The notes below the pieces were generated by a model that was not told the DNA's origin, did not search any database, and saw only the letters and a list, made by a program, of their open reading frames with translations. A DNA stretch of 64,000 nt from an uncultured Gammaproteobacteria bacterium. Its GTDB lineage: Bacteria > Patescibacteriota > Patescibacteriia > Magasanikbacterales > UBA922. Every line of letters begins with the position of its first letter. The first letter of the stretch is position 1. Positions 2,505 through 64,000 of this stretch are shown here, in pieces. A program made the translations under genes and the position numbers. The stretch is from contig CAZQXB010000001.1 of the NCBI GenBank assembly GCA_964597575.1, forward strand, positions 594,511 through 658,510, read 5' to 3'.

Positions 2505-5144
2505 ATGAATCCTCATAATTTCACCCAAAAGTCCCAGGAAGCGATTCAGAGAGCTTCAGATATTGCTCATGAACATGGCCAGCCCCAAGTGGAGCCTCCA
2601 CACCTTTTCGCCTCCCTTCTTCAAGAAGAGGAGGGCGTCGTGATTTCCGTACTTAAAAAAATGAATGCGAACATTCCTGAACTCCGAAATGCGGTGAGTA
2701 GCATGATTCAGGGGATGCCCCGAATCCCAGGCCCTATGCCGGGCGGTATCGGGCAGATTCTGATGGGTCAGGCCATGATGTATATTTTGGAGCGAGCCGG
2801 GGAAGAATCCAAAAAAATGGGCGATGAATACATTAGTGTTGAACATTTATTGTTGGCATTTTTAGGAAATAAAAACCCTATTAGCAGCGCTCTTGGAAAT
2901 CAGGGAGTTCATTACGACGACGTCTTAAAAACATTAGTGACGGTACGTGGAAATCAACGGGTTGATTCAGCAAACCCTGAAAGTAAATATCAGGCCCTTG
3001 AAAAATACGGTAAGAATTTTACCGAACTCGCTCGTCGAGAAAAGTTGGATCCTGTCATTGGTCGTGATGACGAAATTCGTCGAGTCATGCAGGTTCTCAC
3101 ACGTCGCACCAAAAATAACCCGGTACTTATTGGTGAGCCTGGAGTTGGGAAAACCGCCATTATTGAAGGCTTAGCACAGCGCATAGTAAAGGGCGATGTC
3201 CCTGAGAGTTTAAAAGAAAAAGAAGTGGTTGGGCTTGATATTGGTTCTCTCGTGGCCGGAACAAAATTTCGCGGTGAATTTGAGGAACGTTTTAAAGCAG
3301 TTTTAAAAGAAGTGATTGAATCCGATGGGCGTATTATTTTGTTTATTGATGAGCTCCACACCATTGTCGGAGCAGGTGCAAGTGAAGGTGCGGTCGATGC
3401 CAGTAACATGTTAAAGCCCGCACTCGCCCGTGGCGAACTTCATACGGTTGGGGCAACTACGCTTAAGGAATATCGTGAGCATATTGAAAAAGATGCAGCG
3501 TTTGAGCGTCGATTTCAACCGGTTCTCGTGACCGAGCCTACCCCTGAAGACGCGATTGCTATTTTGCGAGGAATCAAAGAAAAATATGAAGTCCATCATG
3601 GGGTCCGAATTACTGACTCTGCGATTGTGGCAGCGGTTGAATTATCAAGCCGCTATATTACCGACCGATTTTTACCCGACAAAGCGATTGATTTGATTGA
3701 CGAAGCTACCTCAGCCCTTCGTATGGAAATTGAATCAATGCCAGACGATTTAGATAAAATGAAACGAAAGATGATCAAAATCGAAATTGAAATGAGCGCC
3801 CTTAAAAAGGAAAAAGACGCTGATGCGAAAGAACGTTTGGGAAAACTGAAAGAAGAGATAGAAAATCTCCGCGAGAAAAGCAATGAGCTTGAAATGCACT
3901 GGAAAAATGAAAAAGAAATTATTGGAAAAATTCGTGAACATAAAAAAAGCATTGATAAGCTAAAGCAGGAAGCTGAAATTGAAGAACGAAACGGTAACTT
4001 ACAAAAAGTAGCCGAAATTCGCTACGGCAGTATTCCTATGATTGAAGAGGCTATTCGAGAAGATGAAAAGAAACTGACCGATATTCAAAAAGGACGTTCT
4101 ATTTTGAAAGAAGAAATTACTGAGGAAGATATTGCAGCCGTAGTTTCGCGCTGGACTAAAATTCCCGTTTCCAAAATGCTTCAGGATGAAATGCGCAAAC
4201 TCGTTACAATGGAAGATGAGCTTCGAAAGCGTGTCGTTGGTCAAGATGAGTCTATTCGCGCGGTAGCAAACGCGATTCGTCGTTCACGGGCTGGTATTTC
4301 TGAAAAGAAACGTCCAATCGGATCCTTTATCTTTCTTGGTCCAACCGGAGTTGGAAAAACGGAACTGGCTCGTGCACTCGCAGATTTTCTTTTTAATGAT
4401 GAGGAAGCTCTGGTTCGGGTGGATATGAGTGAGTTTATGGAAAAACATGCGGTCAGTCGCATGATCGGCTCCCCTCCTGGGTATGTGGGCTACGATGATG
4501 GAGGGCAGTTAACCGAAAAGATTCGTCGTCGTCCATTCTCGGTCGTGTTATTCGATGAAATCGAAAAAGCACATCCAGATATTTTCAATGTCATGCTTCA
4601 AATTCTCGATGATGGTCATGTAACTGATGCCAAAGGCCGTAAAGTCAATTTTAAGAATACCGTCATTATTATGACGAGTAACGTGGGGTCAGACATGATT
4701 ATGCGCTTAGGAAAGCGCGGAGAATTTGGCTTTGGTGATAATTCCGAAAAAACGACGAGTGAGAAAAAAGAAGACGCGATGAAAACGAAAGTCATGGAGG
4801 CTCTCCGTGATCAGTTTCGCCCAGAGTTTTTGAACCGCGTCGATGAAATTATCGTTTTTCATCCCCTCACAAAAGAGAATCTTCGTATCATTGTGGATCT
4901 TCAACTTCTTCAAATCGCAGAGCGACTTCGTGAAAGAAAGCTCACTCTTATTGTGACTGATGCAGCGAAGGATTGGCTCGGTGAAAAAGGATATGACGCA
5001 GAACTGGGAGCCCGCCCGATGAAACGGACGCTCCAAACTGAGGTTCTCGACCCTCTCGCGATACAAATCATGGCCGGAGAAGTGGTAGAGGGTGCGACTA
5101 TTACGGTTGATGTAAAAAATGATAAGATTACGTTCGTTGTTTAA
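2505..5144 (+). CDS. clpB: ATP-dependent chaperone ClpB (two AAA+ modules plus coiled-coil M domain)
   Basis: [16 protein letters not shown]-domain. D1 has Walker A GEPGVGKT and Walker [10 protein letters not shown] long coiled-coil middle domain follows. D2 has GPTGVGKTE and [11 protein letters not shown]. The track ORF starts at an upstream GTG (2427); the ATG at 2505 fits ClpB N-termini. Confidence 0.9.
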
Positions 5145-16496: not shown

Positions 16497-17399
16497 TTAC
16501 GGGAAGACAGAACGAATATATTCAATCGACTTGAACGGCTCTTCTGTATTTGTGATTTCATGCTGGCATGCATCAATAATTTCTATTTGTCCGTTGGTAA
16601 GCTTAAAGGTGAAAACAACTTTTCCACTTTGCTGAGAACAACCGTATGTCGGCGAAAGTAGACCAACATTTGGTGCGCTACGCTGACGAATTGAGGCATA
16701 ACTGGTCTGATTTACCTCACGGGAAATGACAGACATTTTCTCTGGACTTAACGTCGTTTTTAATTGCCCGTTTACATAATATTTTCCATTTGAGGTGAAT
16801 CGAAATTCACAGGGGTTTGACGAGCAATATAAATTACTTGAGTTTGAAGCTGTGTGATGTTTAAAATAAACCACATCATATTCAGGTACCACAATCAAGT
16901 TATTTGTCGGCCCTGGCTGCTGCACAATCGGTTGTGTCGTCGGTCCTGATTGTGGGGAAACAGTAATGCTTCCACTGCCACTTGTTCCACCACTCGACTG
17001 AGAACCAGGTGCAATTGTTGGTTGAGGCTGATTCGTAACAGGTTGAGCCGGAGAAAGGCCACTCGGTTGAGGGCGTACTATGGTCGGCGTTGGCTGATTC
17101 GTAACAGGTTGAGCCGGAGAAAGGCCACTTCCCCTAGCTGGGGTTGGTGAAGCCGCTGGCGGAGTAACGCTTACGGGTGTTGGATTTGTTGGAGGTACTG
17201 GGGCTCTCGGGGTTGGAGAAGCCGGCTCAGGAACTGGCGTAGGAGAGACCTCAACAGCATCAGGGGTTTTAGCAACTTTTTCTTCGGTTGTTTTTTCACC
17301 TTTACTAGCACTAAACCAAACCACGAACAAAAGAATGAAAAGAACGACAACGAAAGCTCCTCTTTTTTGATTTTGAGTAAGTGAGTCTAGCTTGGCCAT
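16497..17399 (-). CDS. Membrane-anchored Pro/Thr-rich protein with Cys-containing C-terminal domain
   Basis: 300 aa with an N-terminal TM (AFVVVLFILLFVVWF), a PT-rich stalk and an internal 22-aa tandem repeat (SGLSPAQPVTNQP...). The C-terminal globular part has 4 Cys. Confidence 0.5.
   Translation of the reverse strand: MAKLDSLTQNQKRGAFVVVLFILLFVVWFSASKGEKTTEEKVAKTPDAVEVSPTPVPEPASPTPRAPVPPTNPTPVSVTPPAASPTPARGSGLSPAQPVTNQPTPTIVRPQPSGLSPAQPVTNQPQPTIAPGSQSSGGTSGSGSITVSPQSGPTTQPIVQQPGPTNNLIVVPEYDVVYFKHHTASNSSNLYCSSNPCEFRFTSNGKYYVNGQLKTTLSPEKMSVISREVNQTSYASIRQRSAPNVGLLSPTYGCSQQSGKVVFTFKLTNGQIEIIDACQHEITNTEEPFKSIEYIRSVFP
17026..17129. repeat. Tandem repeat, 2 copies, 66-bp period (ggctgattcgtaacaggttgagccggagaaaggccact)
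   Basis: The 38-nt block is seen at 17026 and 17092, encoding the repeated SGLSPAQPVTNQP peptide. Confidence 0.7.
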
Positions 17400-44434: not shown

Positions 44435-44705
44435 AATTAAAAACGCACCTCTCCCGAGGTGGTCAAAAAATATACTGAGATAGATATTTCCTGCTCGGGA
44501 TGTCTACACTATTTGGCGATCTGACTCCTTTAGGCTGCCCTAAAGATTACAGTTGCGGCACAGTACCGGAATTTCACCGGACTTCCCCAAATAGCTGCTC
44601 AATTGTGTGTCCATTGTATCTCGCGCATCGAGCGGTGTCAAACGTCCAAATATCACAAAAAAATATTCACTACTGCGTACACTAAAATGGTTATCCACAC
44701 CGTAT

Positions 44706-52647: not shown

Positions 52648-52685
52648 AAATACATAAGAGCACCGTACGGTGCTCTTATGTATTT
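52648..52685. repeat. Perfect 38-nt palindrome aaatacataagagcaccg-ta-cggtgctcttatgtattt (copy 1 of a repeated palindromic element)
   Basis: Read from the sequence. It shares the core ATAAGAGCACC...GGYGCTCTTAT and the flanks CAAAAA / TTGCGG with the copy at 62406-62443. Confidence 0.75.
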
Positions 52686-52830
52686 GCGGGGAATAAAAGA
52701 AAAAAATCGAATGGAATTCAAGGGATCTTGCCAGTAGAAGGAGGGGTTTGGGGAGGAATTCCGTCCGCTCCTTGGCCGTGGGTAAATGACGATTTTAAGT
52801 TTTTGAATGAGGTTGCAATACCTCATTCCG

Positions 52831-60536: not shown

Positions 60537-62222
60537 TTAATATTTTAATTCTGATAAATAATTAGCGACCTTTTTATCAATTGCTTCGCGGGTTTTTTCA
60601 ATCTCCCTCACTTCACTCCACACCGTTTTTACATCCACCACCTCTTCATCTTCGCCATTTTCTACATAGCGACGTACGTTGAGATTGAACTCGTTTTCTT
60701 CGAGCTCCTTAATATCCACCACGCGAGCGTATTTTTCAATATCTCGGTAGCTTTCAAATGCTGACACCATTTTCTCGATATCCTTCTTGCGTAGGCGGTT
60801 TTGATTTTTTCCTTCCTCGTAATCTTGCTCGGCATCAATGATAAGGATTTTATCCTTATGATTCTCTGGCTTGTTTTTGTTGAATATCACAATTGCCGCC
60901 GGAATACCTGTACCATAGAAAAGTTTTGCAGGAAGAGCGATAATGGCTTCTATAAGATCGTTCTTGATAAGTTCCTCACGGATACGACCTTCGGCACCTC
61001 CACGGAAAAGCACGCCATGCGGAAGCACGATGCCGGCGCGGCCGTTTTCGTTCATTGACTTCACCATGTGGAGCACAAAAGCGTAGTCGGCTTTTTTTGC
61101 CGGAGGCATTTCGTAGCCCGCCACTCGTCCATGTTTGTCATTCTTGAATATCTCATACTCCCACTCGCTTATGGAGTAAGGCGGATTGGCAACACAAATA
61201 TCAAATGTCTTGAGCGAGCCGTCAGGATTGAGAAACTTTGGATCAGCAAGTGTATCTCCGCGTTGAATGTTGGCACTATCAAGTCCATGGAGGAACATGT
61301 TGATTTTCGCAATCGCGTATGTCCCGATGTTTATTTCCTGTCCGTAGAGGTAGAGTGAGCGAGCTTTCTTTTCTCCTGCGCTCAGTCTGAGATGGTGATA
61401 GGCCTCCAAGAGGAAACCACCCGAGCCGACCGCCATGTCGTAGATGTGGTCTTTCTCGTGGGGCTTAAGGATACTGACGATCACACGCTCAACTTCCCGC
61501 GGAGTATAAAATGATCCTCCTTTTTTTCCGGCGTCCGCGGCGAACTGCGCAATTAAATACTCGTAAGCATCGCCAAGTAAATCAGTGCTTATGTAATTGT
61601 CACCAAAATTATACTTAGAAAAATGATTGATTAACTTTTGCAGAACCTCGTTTGGAAATTTGTCTTTGTTGGCAAAATCAAGGTCATCAAAAATCTTGTC
61701 CAGCTTCGGACTGTTGGCATTGGTTAGCTTATCAAAAATTTCGTTGAGCTTGTGGCCGATACCTTCGGCTTGTTTTTGTATGACTTCCCATCGACATTCC
61801 TTTGGAACCTGAAACTTGTGATTGTGATCCGCCTTGGCTATTTCTTCATCATGATATTCCTCAAGAATTTTTTTGTATTCTTCGTCCCACACATCACTAA
61901 TTCGTTTATAGAAAAGAAGACCAAAAATATATTTTTTATAATCTGCACTATCTATTCTGTCGCGCAAAATATCTGCACTACTCCAAAGGAATTGCTTAAG
62001 CTGTGTTAGGTCCATTTTTCCTTCATCATCAGTCAGTGGCGCACCGAGATCTTTGACAATGCTTTTGTCATTAGCTATTTTTTCCAAATCTTCAGGACGA
62101 TATTTTCTGTCACCACGGGGACCAACACGCATAGGAGTAATCAAACCTTTTTTCTCCCAATTCCTCAATGTGTCTTTATCTAGACCAAAAATCTTTGCCA
62201 CCTCACTAATCGAAAGTAACAT
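60537..62222 (-). CDS. hsdM: Type I R-M N6-adenine DNA methyltransferase with N-terminal MerR/excisionase-type HTH fusion
   Basis: N-terminal ISEVAKIFGLDKDTLRNWEKKGLITP (HTH_17-like), then an HsdM_N-like helical region, the AdoMet motif DMAVGSGGFL and the catalytic NPPY (VANPPYS). Confidence 0.9.
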   Translation of the reverse strand: MLLSISEVAKIFGLDKDTLRNWEKKGLITPMRVGPRGDRKYRPEDLEKIANDKSIVKDLGAPLTDDEGKMDLTQLKQFLWSSADILRDRIDSADYKKYIFGLLFYKRISDVWDEEYKKILEEYHDEEIAKADHNHKFQVPKECRWEVIQKQAEGIGHKLNEIFDKLTNANSPKLDKIFDDLDFANKDKFPNEVLQKLINHFSKYNFGDNYISTDLLGDAYEYLIAQFAADAGKKGGSFYTPREVERVIVSILKPHEKDHIYDMAVGSGGFLLEAYHHLRLSAGEKKARSLYLYGQEINIGTYAIAKINMFLHGLDSANIQRGDTLADPKFLNPDGSLKTFDICVANPPYSISEWEYEIFKNDKHGRVAGYEMPPAKKADYAFVLHMVKSMNENGRAGIVLPHGVLFRGGAEGRIREELIKNDLIEAIIALPAKLFYGTGIPAAIVIFNKNKPENHKDKILIIDAEQDYEEGKNQNRLRKKDIEKMVSAFESYRDIEKYARVVDIKELEENEFNLNVRRYVENGEDEEVVDVKTVWSEVREIEKTREAIDKKVANYLSELKY

Positions 62223-62405
62223 ACTTTATATACTATCTTTTTAATATTTCATATGTTATCATAGGTTCATTGTTTCCGTCAAACTTTTTACAAAAATTCA
62301 TAAGTTTTCATAGGTTAGAGGGTTTTTACCTCTTGCCATCCTCCGCCCCACTGAGGTGGGAACCTTCCGGTTCCCAAACCCCTGTTCGAATCCACTCTAC
62401 CCAAA

Positions 62406-62443
62406 AATTATATAAGAGCACCATGAGGCGCTCTTATATAATT
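62406..62443. repeat. Palindromic element copy 2: aattatataagagc-accatgaggc-gctcttatataatt
   Basis: 14-bp perfect arms with the same ATAAGAGC core and CAAAAA / TTGCGG flanks as copy 1. Confidence 0.75.
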
Positions 62444-62950
62444 GCGGTGTGTATTGGACGAAGTTCGAATGTATTTCGGGAAAAATCCGCAGGATTTTGA
62501 CTGATTCGCACGCGCGGAGCGCGTGGTGGCTTTGACCCAAATCGTACGCTCCGATTGCCTGGTGAAGCGAACCAATGCGCCTCGGACACGCTCGCGGACT
62601 CGCGTGTGCAAAAGCCAAAAAAATTTCCTTGCATTTTTCTCGCGTCTCCTCCCCCCACCCCTCCGCCGCGAAGCGGAAAAAGAAATGGAAAGGAAATTTT
62701 TTGGTTTTGCTTCGCCGTTTCAGTCTCCAAAAAGAGCATCTCTATTTTATCACTTTTGATATGCTCTTTTCTCTGCCTTCACGGCGACCGAGGCGCACCT
62801 CCTATCCGCGTTCGGTGGTAACTCGGTACTCCGCGAACCACGCACAAGTGCCTACGCATAGCCCGCTCGCATTCGCTCGCGCTGGCTGCTTCGGCATTGT
62901 GCGTGTTCGCTCGGTGGCTTCGTTGGAGTAGGTGGTAACTCTAAAAAGAA

Positions 62951-62970
62951 GTTTGTGCTAAAGCACAAAC
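62951..62970 (-). terminator. Rho-independent terminator (gtttgtgc-taaa-gcacaaac, then U-tract on minus strand)
   Basis: A perfect 8-bp stem. The rc of 62941-62950 is TTCTTTTTAG. Confidence 0.55.
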
Positions 62971-63016
62971 AAATCTCTATGTGCTTGCCCCACCCACCCA
63001 GTGCGCGCACAGAAAA

Positions 63017-63036
63017 CCACCTGCTGACGCAGGTGG
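63017..63036 (-). terminator. Rho-independent terminator for the cupredoxin-like gene (ccacctgc-tgac-gcaggtgg, then TTTTCTGT)
   Basis: A perfect 8-bp stem 12 nt after the stop at 63049. The two terminators lie in tandem. Confidence 0.65.
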
Positions 63037-63048
63037 CTCCCTTGAAAA

Positions 63049-63450
63049 CTAACTCGATTTAATTTGAAAATTGTACATTCCCATTCCGCACACACCCTGT
63101 ATTTTTTCGCCAGATTTTGGAGTGCCAAGGTCAATCACTTCTTCGCCAGATGGTTGTAATATTTTTTGAAAACCTGTCGAGCGGATAACGAGTGATGCAG
63201 AGCAATCGTATGTGCCGTTTGTCTTTACAATAAGTTTTGTAGGTAGGTTCGGTTGTATAATCGATTGGCGTGGCGAGTACCCACCCTTCGCATCCACGGT
63301 GACATATTGCACACCGTCTTTTACTTCAACATTTTGAGATTGCGAGACAGCACCATTTTCGGAAGAAGTAGGTTTTTCAGACACAAAATACAGCGTTCCA
63401 CCAATGATAACGATGCTGATGATAATGGAAATGATTGTGTTCTTTTGCAT
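63049..63450 (-). CDS. Membrane-anchored cupredoxin-like (Cupredoxin_1-type) protein
   Basis: N-terminal TM, a beta-sandwich-like domain with Cys (YDCSASL) and C-terminal GVCGMGMY. Confidence 0.45.
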   Translation of the reverse strand: MQKNTIISIIISIVIIGGTLYFVSEKPTSSENGAVSQSQNVEVKDGVQYVTVDAKGGYSPRQSIIQPNLPTKLIVKTNGTYDCSASLVIRSTGFQKILQPSGEEVIDLGTPKSGEKIQGVCGMGMYNFQIKSS

Positions 63451-63468: not shown

Positions 63469-64000
63469 TTATACATTAAATAACGGGTTGATAATACCAA
63501 GCCCCGCAAGCCCAGCGAGAAGCGCAAAAATTCCAAGACCGATAACAACCACTCCCGCAGATTTGAAAAAGAGCGGAGCATATTTTGATTGAGCAATCGA
63601 AGCAGAGCCGAAAGATAGAAGTGCGAGCATTGGAAGCGTACCGAGCGCGAATGCGGTCATAATGAGTAGGCCCGACAAGAATGAACCGCTTGATAGAGCC
63701 GCAACCTGCATCGCCTGAGTGAAGCCACAAGGCAAGAAGAAAGTCCCGACACCGACAAGAAATGGAGCGATGGTTTTGTGTTCTACCTTACGGAAAAAGC
63801 TAAATACACCAGATGGCAAAGCAATCACGTTTTTCTTAAACAAACCTACGAGATTAAGCCCGAGCACGATCATCACGACGGATGCAAGGATTCCAAGTAT
63901 CGCCGTGAGGGTAAAACTTATGCCGATCGCGCTTCCAATGGTACCGAGCATCCCACCGAGCACCGCAAAACTCACTAATCGCCCTCCGTGGAAAAGCATC
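63469..64000 (-). CDS. Polytopic membrane protein (DsbD_2/CcdA-like), probably N-terminally truncated by the window end
   Basis: Multiple TM helices and FLPCGF. It is paired with a cupredoxin-like gene, as is often seen for DsbD_2 proteins. Confidence 0.45.
   Translation of the reverse strand, partial: MLFHGGRLVSFAVLGGMLGTIGSAIGISFTLTAILGILASVVMIVLGLNLVGLFKKNVIALPSGVFSFFRKVEHKTIAPFLVGVGTFFLPCGFTQAMQVAALSSGSFLSGLLIMTAFALGTLPMLALLSFGSASIAQSKYAPLFFKSAGVVVIGLGIFALLAGLAGLGIINPLFNV

Follow-up and report, generated by a model that had tools for sequence, protein, structure and literature searches.

A GC-rich intergenic stretch in a patescibacterial genome is very probably the end module of an integrative element from a tRNA-Ser-targeting large serine recombinase family

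The window analyzed here is a stretch of 64,000 nucleotides from an uncultured bacterium that GTDB places in the Patescibacteriota (contig CAZQXB010000001.1). Near its end, an intergenic stretch of 826 nt lies between an hsdM-like methylase gene (60537-62222, minus strand) and a cupredoxin-like gene, and a sequence-only reading had picked out positions 62446 to 62940 as a GC-rich, hairpin-dense island of the kind that hosts a free-standing structured noncoding RNA (ncRNA) gene. Our analysis confirmed the description only in part and moved its limits, and the interpretation, supported in part, had to be replaced. The natural unit runs from 62444 to 63048, and it is very probably the cargo-distal terminal module of an integrative element of ~7.8 kb, mobilized by a large serine recombinase (LSR), from a family that targets tRNA-Ser genes and with copper cargo at this locus. 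The features that carry this reading are as follows.

62406-62443: palindromic terminator-type hairpin in the flank, outside the element and adjoining the insertion point; near-copy at 52648-52685.
62444-62447: GCGG core, the crossover region, common to the element ends, the internal attP copy, and tRNA-Ser 3' ends.
62444-62504, plus strand: attP "P" arm, which is also the 3' coding end that integration detaches from the LSR gene; (tg)G CGG TGT ... GAC TGA encodes WRCVLDEVRMYFGKNPQDFD-stop.
62444-62720: IR-B, one arm of a 277-bp inverted repeat; its twin lies between the cargo and the LSR gene, past the window end.
63049-63450, minus strand: cupredoxin-like last cargo gene of the copper operon; its transcription runs into terminator T2 and then T1.

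The left boundary of the unit was located by comparison with ten contigs (L001 to L010), which match the window from 64000 back to 62444 at 99.6 to 99.9% identity and are unrelated to it from there on, so that 62444 marks a sharp end. The ten contigs, all with an identical cupredoxin, place the same copper element in at least five differing flanks; the cupredoxin protein itself occurs in 108 blocks of public assemblies, and the operon DNA was compared in the ten contigs. Their copper cargo comprises csoR, copA, a YncE-like gene, HMA/DsbD2, and the cupredoxin gene. The full layout could be read from L003 and L004 and, in the window's orientation, consists of the flank, GCGG and IR-B, the structured spacer, the cargo, an inverted IR-B, an inverted IR-A', the LSR gene, IR-A, GCGG, and the target. 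The boundary is equally sharp across 37 elements, and 27 relatives all begin GCGGTGT.... At these distal ends, unrelated flanks precede GCGGTGT and often close in a terminator hairpin, which in many relatives stops 0 to 10 nt short of the junction. The palindrome at 62406-62443, reported in the earlier reading as bordering the stretch, is indeed there, as is its second copy; before insertion it probably served as the terminator downstream of the target tRNA-Ser gene.

The recombinase provides further evidence. In L003 and L004 it is a protein of 520 amino acids (aa) with the Pfam domains Resolvase (PF00239), Recombinase (PF07508), and Zn_ribbon_recom (PF13408) and an N-terminal YTRKST...Q motif; NCBIfam CcrB/XisF-like matches fall under the cut-off. 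Its gene adjoins the proximal, inverted IR-B copy in the copper-element contigs. Among GTDB contigs, with one genome per species, we found 320 relatives of this LSR, nearly all labelled Patescibacteria, and retrieved 80 of their loci, in which the LSR shows 79 to 97% amino acid identity. The lineage labels of these loci include Paceibacteria, Saccharibacteria, and Uhr-, Morani-, Kaiser-, Nomura-, Levyi-, and Peribacteria groups, among others. They share a common layout: distal IR-B, a unique spacer (in most subfamilies), 1.5 to 6.7 kb of cargo, inverted IR-B, inverted IR-A', LSR, and IR-A. The copper operon is absent from all 80 loci, whose cargo includes restriction-modification and other defence genes and nitroreductase, glycosyltransferase, and cytochrome d1-like genes. 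Cargo is almost always transcribed toward the unique spacer, and genes read toward the module are seen in 20 elements. Because the module is kept beside unrelated cargo, 62444-63048 is element backbone, neither cargo nor host DNA. No LSR relative was present in IMG/VR, and blastn of the module against 50,697 phage records and 72,556 plasmid records returned no match.

We next consider the integration target. At the LSR 3' end, IR-A closes with ...caattttg followed by GCGG, and in about 52 of 60 loci an antisense tRNA-Ser gene overlaps this end, with anticodons gct, tga, gga, cga, and act. Unoccupied tRNA-Ser genes read from the flank into GCGGAG..., and the same GCGG is shared by the flank/IR-B, IR-A/tRNA, and IR-A/IR-B junctions. 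The shared GCGG, together with the antisense tRNA-Ser junctions, thus places attB at the tRNA-Ser 3' end with GCGG as the core. The element contributes ...CCGC|CAAAATTG, that is, an encoded CCA end. Site-specific recombination would join attP (IR-A|GCGG|IR-B) with the tRNA-Ser 3' end (flank|GCGG|acceptor and T arm), and in the integrated state the tRNA is restored. As judged from the junction sequences, the tRNA-Ser 3' end is established as the integration site of the family. Use of tRNA genes by serine integrases was "not reported previously" at the time of a survey with 14 predicted cases among 297 (PMC7192596), and the serine family has been described as "not known to target tDNAs" (PMC4383910). 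The att arm was also considered as a tRNA-like fold; it has only TTCGAA in common with a T-loop and no T-arm pairing. ARAGORN found zero tRNAs anywhere in the window.

The 5' end of the module is itself coding. In the attP configuration, the LSR frame ...CAA TTT TGG CGG runs across the core and enters IR-B, where 62444-62504 translates as W-R-C-V-L-D-E-V-R-M-Y-F-G-K-N-P-Q-D-F-D-stop, with the stop codon at 62502-62504. This att arm is the best-conserved part of the repeat (93 to 98% identity). In about 55 of 60 attP copies, the frame, the stop, and the motif W-R-C-[VLI]-L-[DN]-[EK]-V-R-x-Y-F-x-x-N-P-x-D are kept, and the substitutions are conservative. Since the LSR frame crosses attP, integration detaches the last 20 codons (62444-62504) from the gene; the tail after integration consists of residues from the antisense tRNA, for example WRRGRDSNPR, and excision would restore the native tail. 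The earlier statement that there is no open reading frame (ORF) in any frame therefore fails for 62444-62504, the in-frame 3' end of a recombinase gene, and holds beyond 62504, where we found no conserved reading frame and no 3-periodicity of substitutions. Both hairpins that had been listed inside the stretch are real. One of them, aaaatcc-gca-ggatttt (62482-62498), sits within the coding tail and is not conserved in other subfamilies; the other is cacgcgc-gga-gcgcgtg (62510-62526).

Nearly half of the unit is one arm of a long inverted repeat. In blastn against L001 to L007, both IR-B arms matched at 99.6 to 100% identity, and each copper contig carries the second IR-B copy inverted, upstream of csoR. 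The 137 nt between the LSR start codon and this IR-B (IR-A') are an inverted copy of LSR codons about 461 to 499 (IR-A). The proximal IR-B and IR-A' thus make up a complete second attP, inverted and directly upstream of the LSR gene, so that the cargo bay is bracketed by inverted repeats of 190 to 430 bp that are ~100% identical per element. Within each of 27 elements, two complete chromosomes included, the IR-B arms are 95 to 100% identical over 188 to 429 bp and exact in most, whereas between elements the middle of IR-B diverges by 20 to 30% plus indels; identity within and divergence between elements point to concerted evolution of the arms. The inner end of IR-B always falls just past the 5' strand of the Pc helix described below.

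This arrangement raises the question of whether the module is the arm of an invertible segment of the Cin/Gin type, in which the repeats would serve a switch, with the cargo, the LSR gene, or both turned over by the recombinase or RecA. The arms are kept identical, a sign of concerted evolution, and alternative arrangements exist: the unique spacer lies beside the proximal repeat in L064 and L065 and beside the distal repeat in about 22 loci; the order in L089 is LSR, IR-A, IR-B, and then the opposite cargo end; and in L041, L057, and L058 tRNA-Ser is joined to IR-A' upstream of the LSR gene. However, the minority states come from short-read contigs of metagenome-assembled genomes, in which path errors through perfect inverted repeats of 116 to 430 bp would mimic them, and both complete chromosomes, L025 (OZ246398.1) and L070 (OY969413.1), are in the majority state. 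Moreover, flipping of the cargo has no obvious phenotypic pay-off. The arrangements in L064, L065, L089, L041, L057, and L058 are therefore only suggestive of inversion or of use of the second attP, and we regard an invertible segment as doubtful.

Downstream of the coding tail, the terminal module of the element is rich in secondary structure. We aligned 19 and then 46 modules from about six subfamilies; the second set was gathered with a 20-nt core of a nearly invariant block, which matched at least 120 metagenome contigs. The features of this part are as follows.

62505-62575: insert particular to some subfamilies, containing the hairpin 62510-62526; in the alignments, the X and Y subfamilies and part of W lack the insert.
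62576-62797: conserved four-helix "P1 domain," defined by folding of single sequences and by covariation.
62576-62585 with 62788-62797: P1 helix.
62586-62607: Pa hairpin.
62608-62710: Pb hairpin, with A- and T-tracts on both sides and a C/G-rich apex.
62712-62718 with 62781-62787: Pc helix.
62730-62770: Pd hairpin.
62814-62824, plus strand: direct repeat GGTGGTAACTC, copy 1, on the 5' side of H3; conserved in the alignments.
62826-62918: H3, a long GC-rich hairpin between the two direct repeats; optional, with the apex or all of it missing in about 20 of 46 relatives.
62931-62941, plus strand: direct repeat GGTGGTAACTC, copy 2; conserved in the alignments.
62951-62970, minus strand: T1 intrinsic terminator, stem GTTTGTGCT/AGCACAAAC and then TTCTTTTT; called by the terminator scan.
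62979-63011: nearly invariant block ATGTGCTTGCCCCACCCACCCAGTGCGCGCACA, 33 nt, from the alignments.
63017-63036, minus strand: T2, the terminator hairpin that cargo transcription reaches first, CCACCTGC-tgac-GCAGGTGG and then TTTTCTG; the conserved motif CTCCCTT (63037-63043) adjoins it.

The structure is conserved. Folded singly, all 19 sequences form the four-helix domain. Across the 46 sequences, 80.6% of cells are paired under the structure derived from the window sequence, compared with 40 to 48% when partners are slid, and 201 cells carry double changes compared with 88 ± 8 in shuffles, none of 500 of which reached 201; the 46 sequences represent no more than about 6 independent subfamilies. 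Pairing looked alike in the 19-sequence set. Pc is 96% paired with compensatory changes in 4 of its 7 pairs, the base of Pb is 90% paired, the H3 apex helix is 97.7% paired with 3 compensatory pairs, T1 is 86% paired with UA-to-CG swaps in 9 sequences, and the T2 stem varies in sequence among elements with its pairing retained. The covariation check proposed for the stretch thus yielded conserved secondary structure with compensatory changes.

At the same time, the module tolerates change. Depending on the subfamily, the Pb apex is rich in C or in G, and the Z subfamily has two hairpins only and no unique spacer. H3 and the GTGGTAACTC repeats are both missing in L177, L109, and L157; L134:152-694 carries insertions of about 80 nt in Pa and 60 nt in the Pb apex; and L096:4778-5231 is a mosaic with a W-type 5' half and a Y-type 3' half. 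The end module is mosaic and tolerant of change. Two other ideas about its parts were tried and rejected: a G-quadruplex at the G-rich apices, which lack four clean G-runs and switch strand between subfamilies, and an origin of the unique spacer as an old inverted IR-B copy, for which inspection by eye gave no convincing similarity beyond 17 nt of P1 and Pc.

A free-standing ncRNA gene, in which the GC-rich region would be transcribed as a stable RNA with a functional fold, could account for part of this picture. The 495-nt stretch singled out earlier has a GC content of 53.7% against a window mean of 44.0%, at the 98th percentile of 495-nt windows and not the maximum, so that it is GC-rich as described, although the genome is not AT-rich. 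The whole unit, 62444-63048, contains no complete gene and is 53% GC. On either strand the 495-nt stretch has a better predicted fold than its dinucleotide-shuffled versions (z = -3.62 and -4.56), none of which, out of 100, did as well. In addition to the compensatory changes in several helices, a TGnTAAAAT-like extended -10 element is conserved on the minus strand in the Pd loop (alignments A1 and A3). Against this reading, the core helices contain 1,390 Watson-Crick pairs, 15 G-U pairs, and 22 A-C mismatches; pairing overall shows 187 G-U on the plus strand versus 211 A-C. The near absence of G-U pairs and of any strand preference is not the signature of an RNA structured on one strand. Transcription from the putative -10 would yield an RNA that does not include the 3' strands of P1 and Pc. 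Furthermore, no Rfam family was matched in the window region or in relatives, in agreement with the earlier failure to find known RNA signatures: in Rfam 15, whose families include RNase P, tmRNA, SRP, 6S, GOLLD, ROOL, and ribozymes, the best scores over 62150-63150 were 24 bits (gathering threshold 76) and 21 bits (gathering threshold 72), with E ≥ 1, and a search for Rfam families and tRNAs in six relatives gave tRNAs only. The Rfam matches at E ≤ 10 (RAGATH-27 in the flank, rteR, and miRNA models) were rejected as chance-level. The region is always tied to the element. Since near half of the unit (62444-62720) is an inverted-repeat arm and its first 61 nt are att arm and coding sequence, an ncRNA gene is not supported, and we consider a free-standing one unlikely. 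A regulatory RNA or a signal at the DNA level, single-stranded or cruciform, is possible.

The same strand-symmetric, Watson-Crick-only conservation would be expected of a structured DNA signal. On this view, the four-helix domain and H3 would adopt their fold when the DNA is single-stranded, or would extrude as cruciforms, and the fold would be used for transfer, for priming of the second strand, or for control of the recombinase. Single-strand origins, oriT, integron attC sites, and the folded CTX attP are analogues. Consistent with this, the structure is held while sequence and apex orientation change, the Pb apex being flipped between subfamilies, and the family has spread over many lineages of the candidate phyla radiation (CPR) with no transfer genes on the element. 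On the other hand, LSRs are established to work on double-stranded sites and require no accessory DNA. The element has no relaxase or Rep gene and no nick-site motif, and the Z subfamily, together with three elements without H3, indicates that large parts of the module are dispensable. A DNA-level signal is thus possible but not probable.

That the stretch is a decayed pseudogene or a random GC-rich spacer with chance hairpins is highly improbable. It does contain several stop-free runs of 60 to 120 codons, and ORFs of 101 aa and 145 aa are annotated in public contigs. Yet 3-periodicity is absent, the subfamilies share no reading frame, indel lengths do not follow multiples of three, and both sequence and structure are strongly conserved beside unrelated cargo. 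The 145-aa ORF is mostly the antisense of LSR coding sequence. The 101-aa ORF (62434-62739, minus strand), a 118-aa ORF, and the 145-aa ORF were accordingly rejected as genes for want of a conserved frame and of periodicity. Public calls of this kind, at L003:4768-5205 (minus strand), at L002:5578-5883, and in the window at 62434-62739 (minus strand), are low-complexity and lie inside the inverted repeat. The 101-aa and 145-aa calls are probably spurious annotations propagated in databases.

We read the noncoding remainder of the terminal module as a cis-acting insulator or a DNA-level structure rather than a classical ncRNA. The two minus-strand terminator hairpins at 62951-62970 and 63017-63036 do border the stretch as noted earlier; their assignment to the copper operon does not hold, as they are conserved element backbone. 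T2 and T1 would halt cargo transcription short of the att arm. The hairpins Pb and Pd each stand between an A-tract and a T-tract and would be bidirectional terminators, which would account for the strand-symmetric, Watson-Crick-only conservation. Because Pb lies inside the repeat, the same insulator would shield both sides of the cargo bay, the LSR gene included.

Several points weigh against the interpretation of the unit as an element end with an insulator. The window stops at 64000, and for its own genome the LSR gene, the second arm, and the target are extrapolated from contigs with 99.9% identity to it. When the window flank was used as an exact pattern to scan metagenome contigs, no empty site turned up, nor was an excised circle found; L011 and L012, which have the same flank as the window, break off 30 nt inside the repeat. 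We identified no recombination directionality factor. In L003 and L004, the LSR end of the copper element meets a degenerate attP-like arm and not tRNA-Ser, so that the tRNA-Ser target holds for the family and is not demonstrated for the copper copy; this arm suggests an array of elements. The terminator-insulator role of Pb and Pd is proposed from their sequence form, and a consensus terminator scan called T1 alone and neither Pb nor Pd. Finally, no transcript that ends at Pb can form both P1 and Pc, and insulation therefore does not explain their covariation.

A bolder proposal, which we consider rather unlikely, is that the module is part of a self-contained recombination switch that operates without a directionality factor. 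Here integration and excision would swap the tail, and the inverted attP, with the four-helix domain and H3, would act at the DNA level as a cruciform or single-stranded fold that sets directionality or expression or aids establishment after uptake of single-stranded DNA in naturally competent Patescibacteria. If true, such a switch would add a new logic to the control of serine integrases and would offer an integration vector, ready for use, aimed at a tRNA-Ser site found across CPR bacteria.

The element family can be compared with several known systems. It shares with LSR elements and prophages (phiC31, Bxb1, A118, TnpX of Tn4451, CcrAB of SCCmec, and XisF) the Resolvase, Recombinase, and zinc-ribbon architecture of the LSR, conservative attP x attB recombination with a very short core and precise ends, and an attP with imperfect dyad symmetry about the core. 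It differs from them in its tRNA-gene target, in the recombinase frame running across attP, in the second, inverted, complete attP, in the enclosure of cargo within inverted repeats of 190 to 430 bp, and in that no directionality factor is seen. In the P1 C segment (cin) and the Mu G segment (gin), a serine recombinase gene likewise stands beside a segment bracketed by inverted repeats; those of P1 are about 0.6 kb, with the crossover sites at the outer repeat ends. The P1 and Mu invertases are small, need an enhancer and Fis, and switch tail-fibre genes, whereas the present enzyme is an integrase-type LSR for which inversion is unproven. GOLLD, ROOL, HEARO/omega RNA, and RAGATH motifs also combine GC-rich, conserved multi-helix structure with a location in mobile DNA, often near tRNA genes; in contrast, the present module has no covariance-model match at gathering thresholds and no strand-specific G-U signature.

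The attB of Mx8 lies in a tRNA gene. The Mx8 IntP/IntX and SSV-type tyrosine integrases follow the same 3'-end exchange principle as the present LSR, in that integration alters the 3' end of the gene and gives a new C-terminus (PMC6070905, PMC4383910). They are enzymes of a myxophage and of archaeal viruses, whereas the present enzyme is a serine recombinase on a phage-free cargo element, exchanges only its last 20 codons, and takes antisense tRNA sequence instead. The tycheposons of Prochlorococcus are likewise small, cargo-carrying, tRNA-targeting elements, a minority of which use an LSR, and they form islands in streamlined genomes without classical transfer systems (10.1101/2020.12.28.424599). 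Unlike the present family, they belong to another phylum, rely for the most part on tyrosine recombinases, and in many cases encode replication functions, and long inverted repeats, a split recombinase gene, and a structured end module are not reported for them. Tycheposons (10.1101/2020.12.28.424599) and Mx8 IntP are the closest concepts. Integrative islands, LSRs, and integrase genes that span attP are each already known. In the literature searched we found no described CPR serine-recombinase element; a CPR-wide, tRNA-Ser-specific LSR family appears to be undescribed, as do, within that literature, the duplicated inverted attP, the bracketed cargo bay, and the structured end module.

Outside the unit, the flank showed further features. 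The stems CCCAC/GTGGG and GGGAACC/GGTTCCC, listed in the sequence-only reading, are present at 62347-62376 and belong to this flank rather than to the unit. They fall in a segment (62330-62402, plus strand) that resembles a degenerate 3' part of a type II tRNA, with an anticodon-like stem, a GGGAACC/GGTTCCC variable arm, and a TTCGAAT loop; it stops just short of the palindrome and was called by neither ARAGORN nor Rfam. The flank duplication of the window has a counterpart in L015, where the distal-end flank (4750-4801) and that of an unoccupied tRNA-Ser gene (17028-17115) 12 kb away share about 85% identity, as judged by eye. A weak RAGATH-27-like match at 62266-62331 (plus strand; 24 bits against a gathering threshold of 76, E = 1) strikingly resembles the model's 5' half in primary sequence. 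It overlaps two direct copies of a 30-nt sequence (62238-62267/62287-62316) upstream of the MerR-HTH-fused hsdM; 62238-62331 may be promoter or operator DNA of the restriction-modification island. The sole Rfam match in the window is an AdoCbl-II riboswitch aptamer at 44506-44605 (minus strand; 42 bits against a gathering threshold of 36.5).

The type I restriction-modification/Fic island itself (about 52.7 to 62.4 kb) lies between the two near-identical palindromes, each of which is followed by GCGG. Located 54 nt past the first palindrome, the 21-nt motif AGGAGGGGTTTGGGGAGGAAT (52739-52759) exactly matches one that typifies the Z subfamily. An older relative, since decayed, may have had the island as its cargo, and the locus may represent an array of elements at a tRNA-Ser hot spot. 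A simple tandem-array model was rejected, as it does not explain the duplicated palindromes pal1 and pal2.

Altogether, the assignment of the unit to an integrative element accounts for both the odd noncoding island and the neighbouring copper-resistance operon. Contigs L001 to L010, L011 and L012, and many of L013 to L212 very often begin or end exactly at the repeat, for example 30 nt inside IR-B or at the inner edge of IR-B; in short-read assemblies of CPR genomes, the family is a systematic cause of fragmentation. It therefore calls for caution in assembly and annotation, as the repeats break contigs and spurious ORFs of 101 aa and 145 aa are called within them. The family also provides many independent loci for tRNA-targeting serine integrases, a class that the literature calls unreported or unproven (PMC4383910, PMC7192596), and it has an unusual architecture, with the recombinase gene split across attP, attP duplicated in inverted orientation, and the cargo bay putatively insulated. 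Furthermore, it carries defence, restriction-modification, and metal-resistance genes among reduced genomes. As LSRs that are 79 to 97% identical occur across distant Patescibacteria and the tRNA-Ser 3' end is universal, the attP/LSR pair is a candidate genetic tool, which would serve organisms that are very hard to manipulate.

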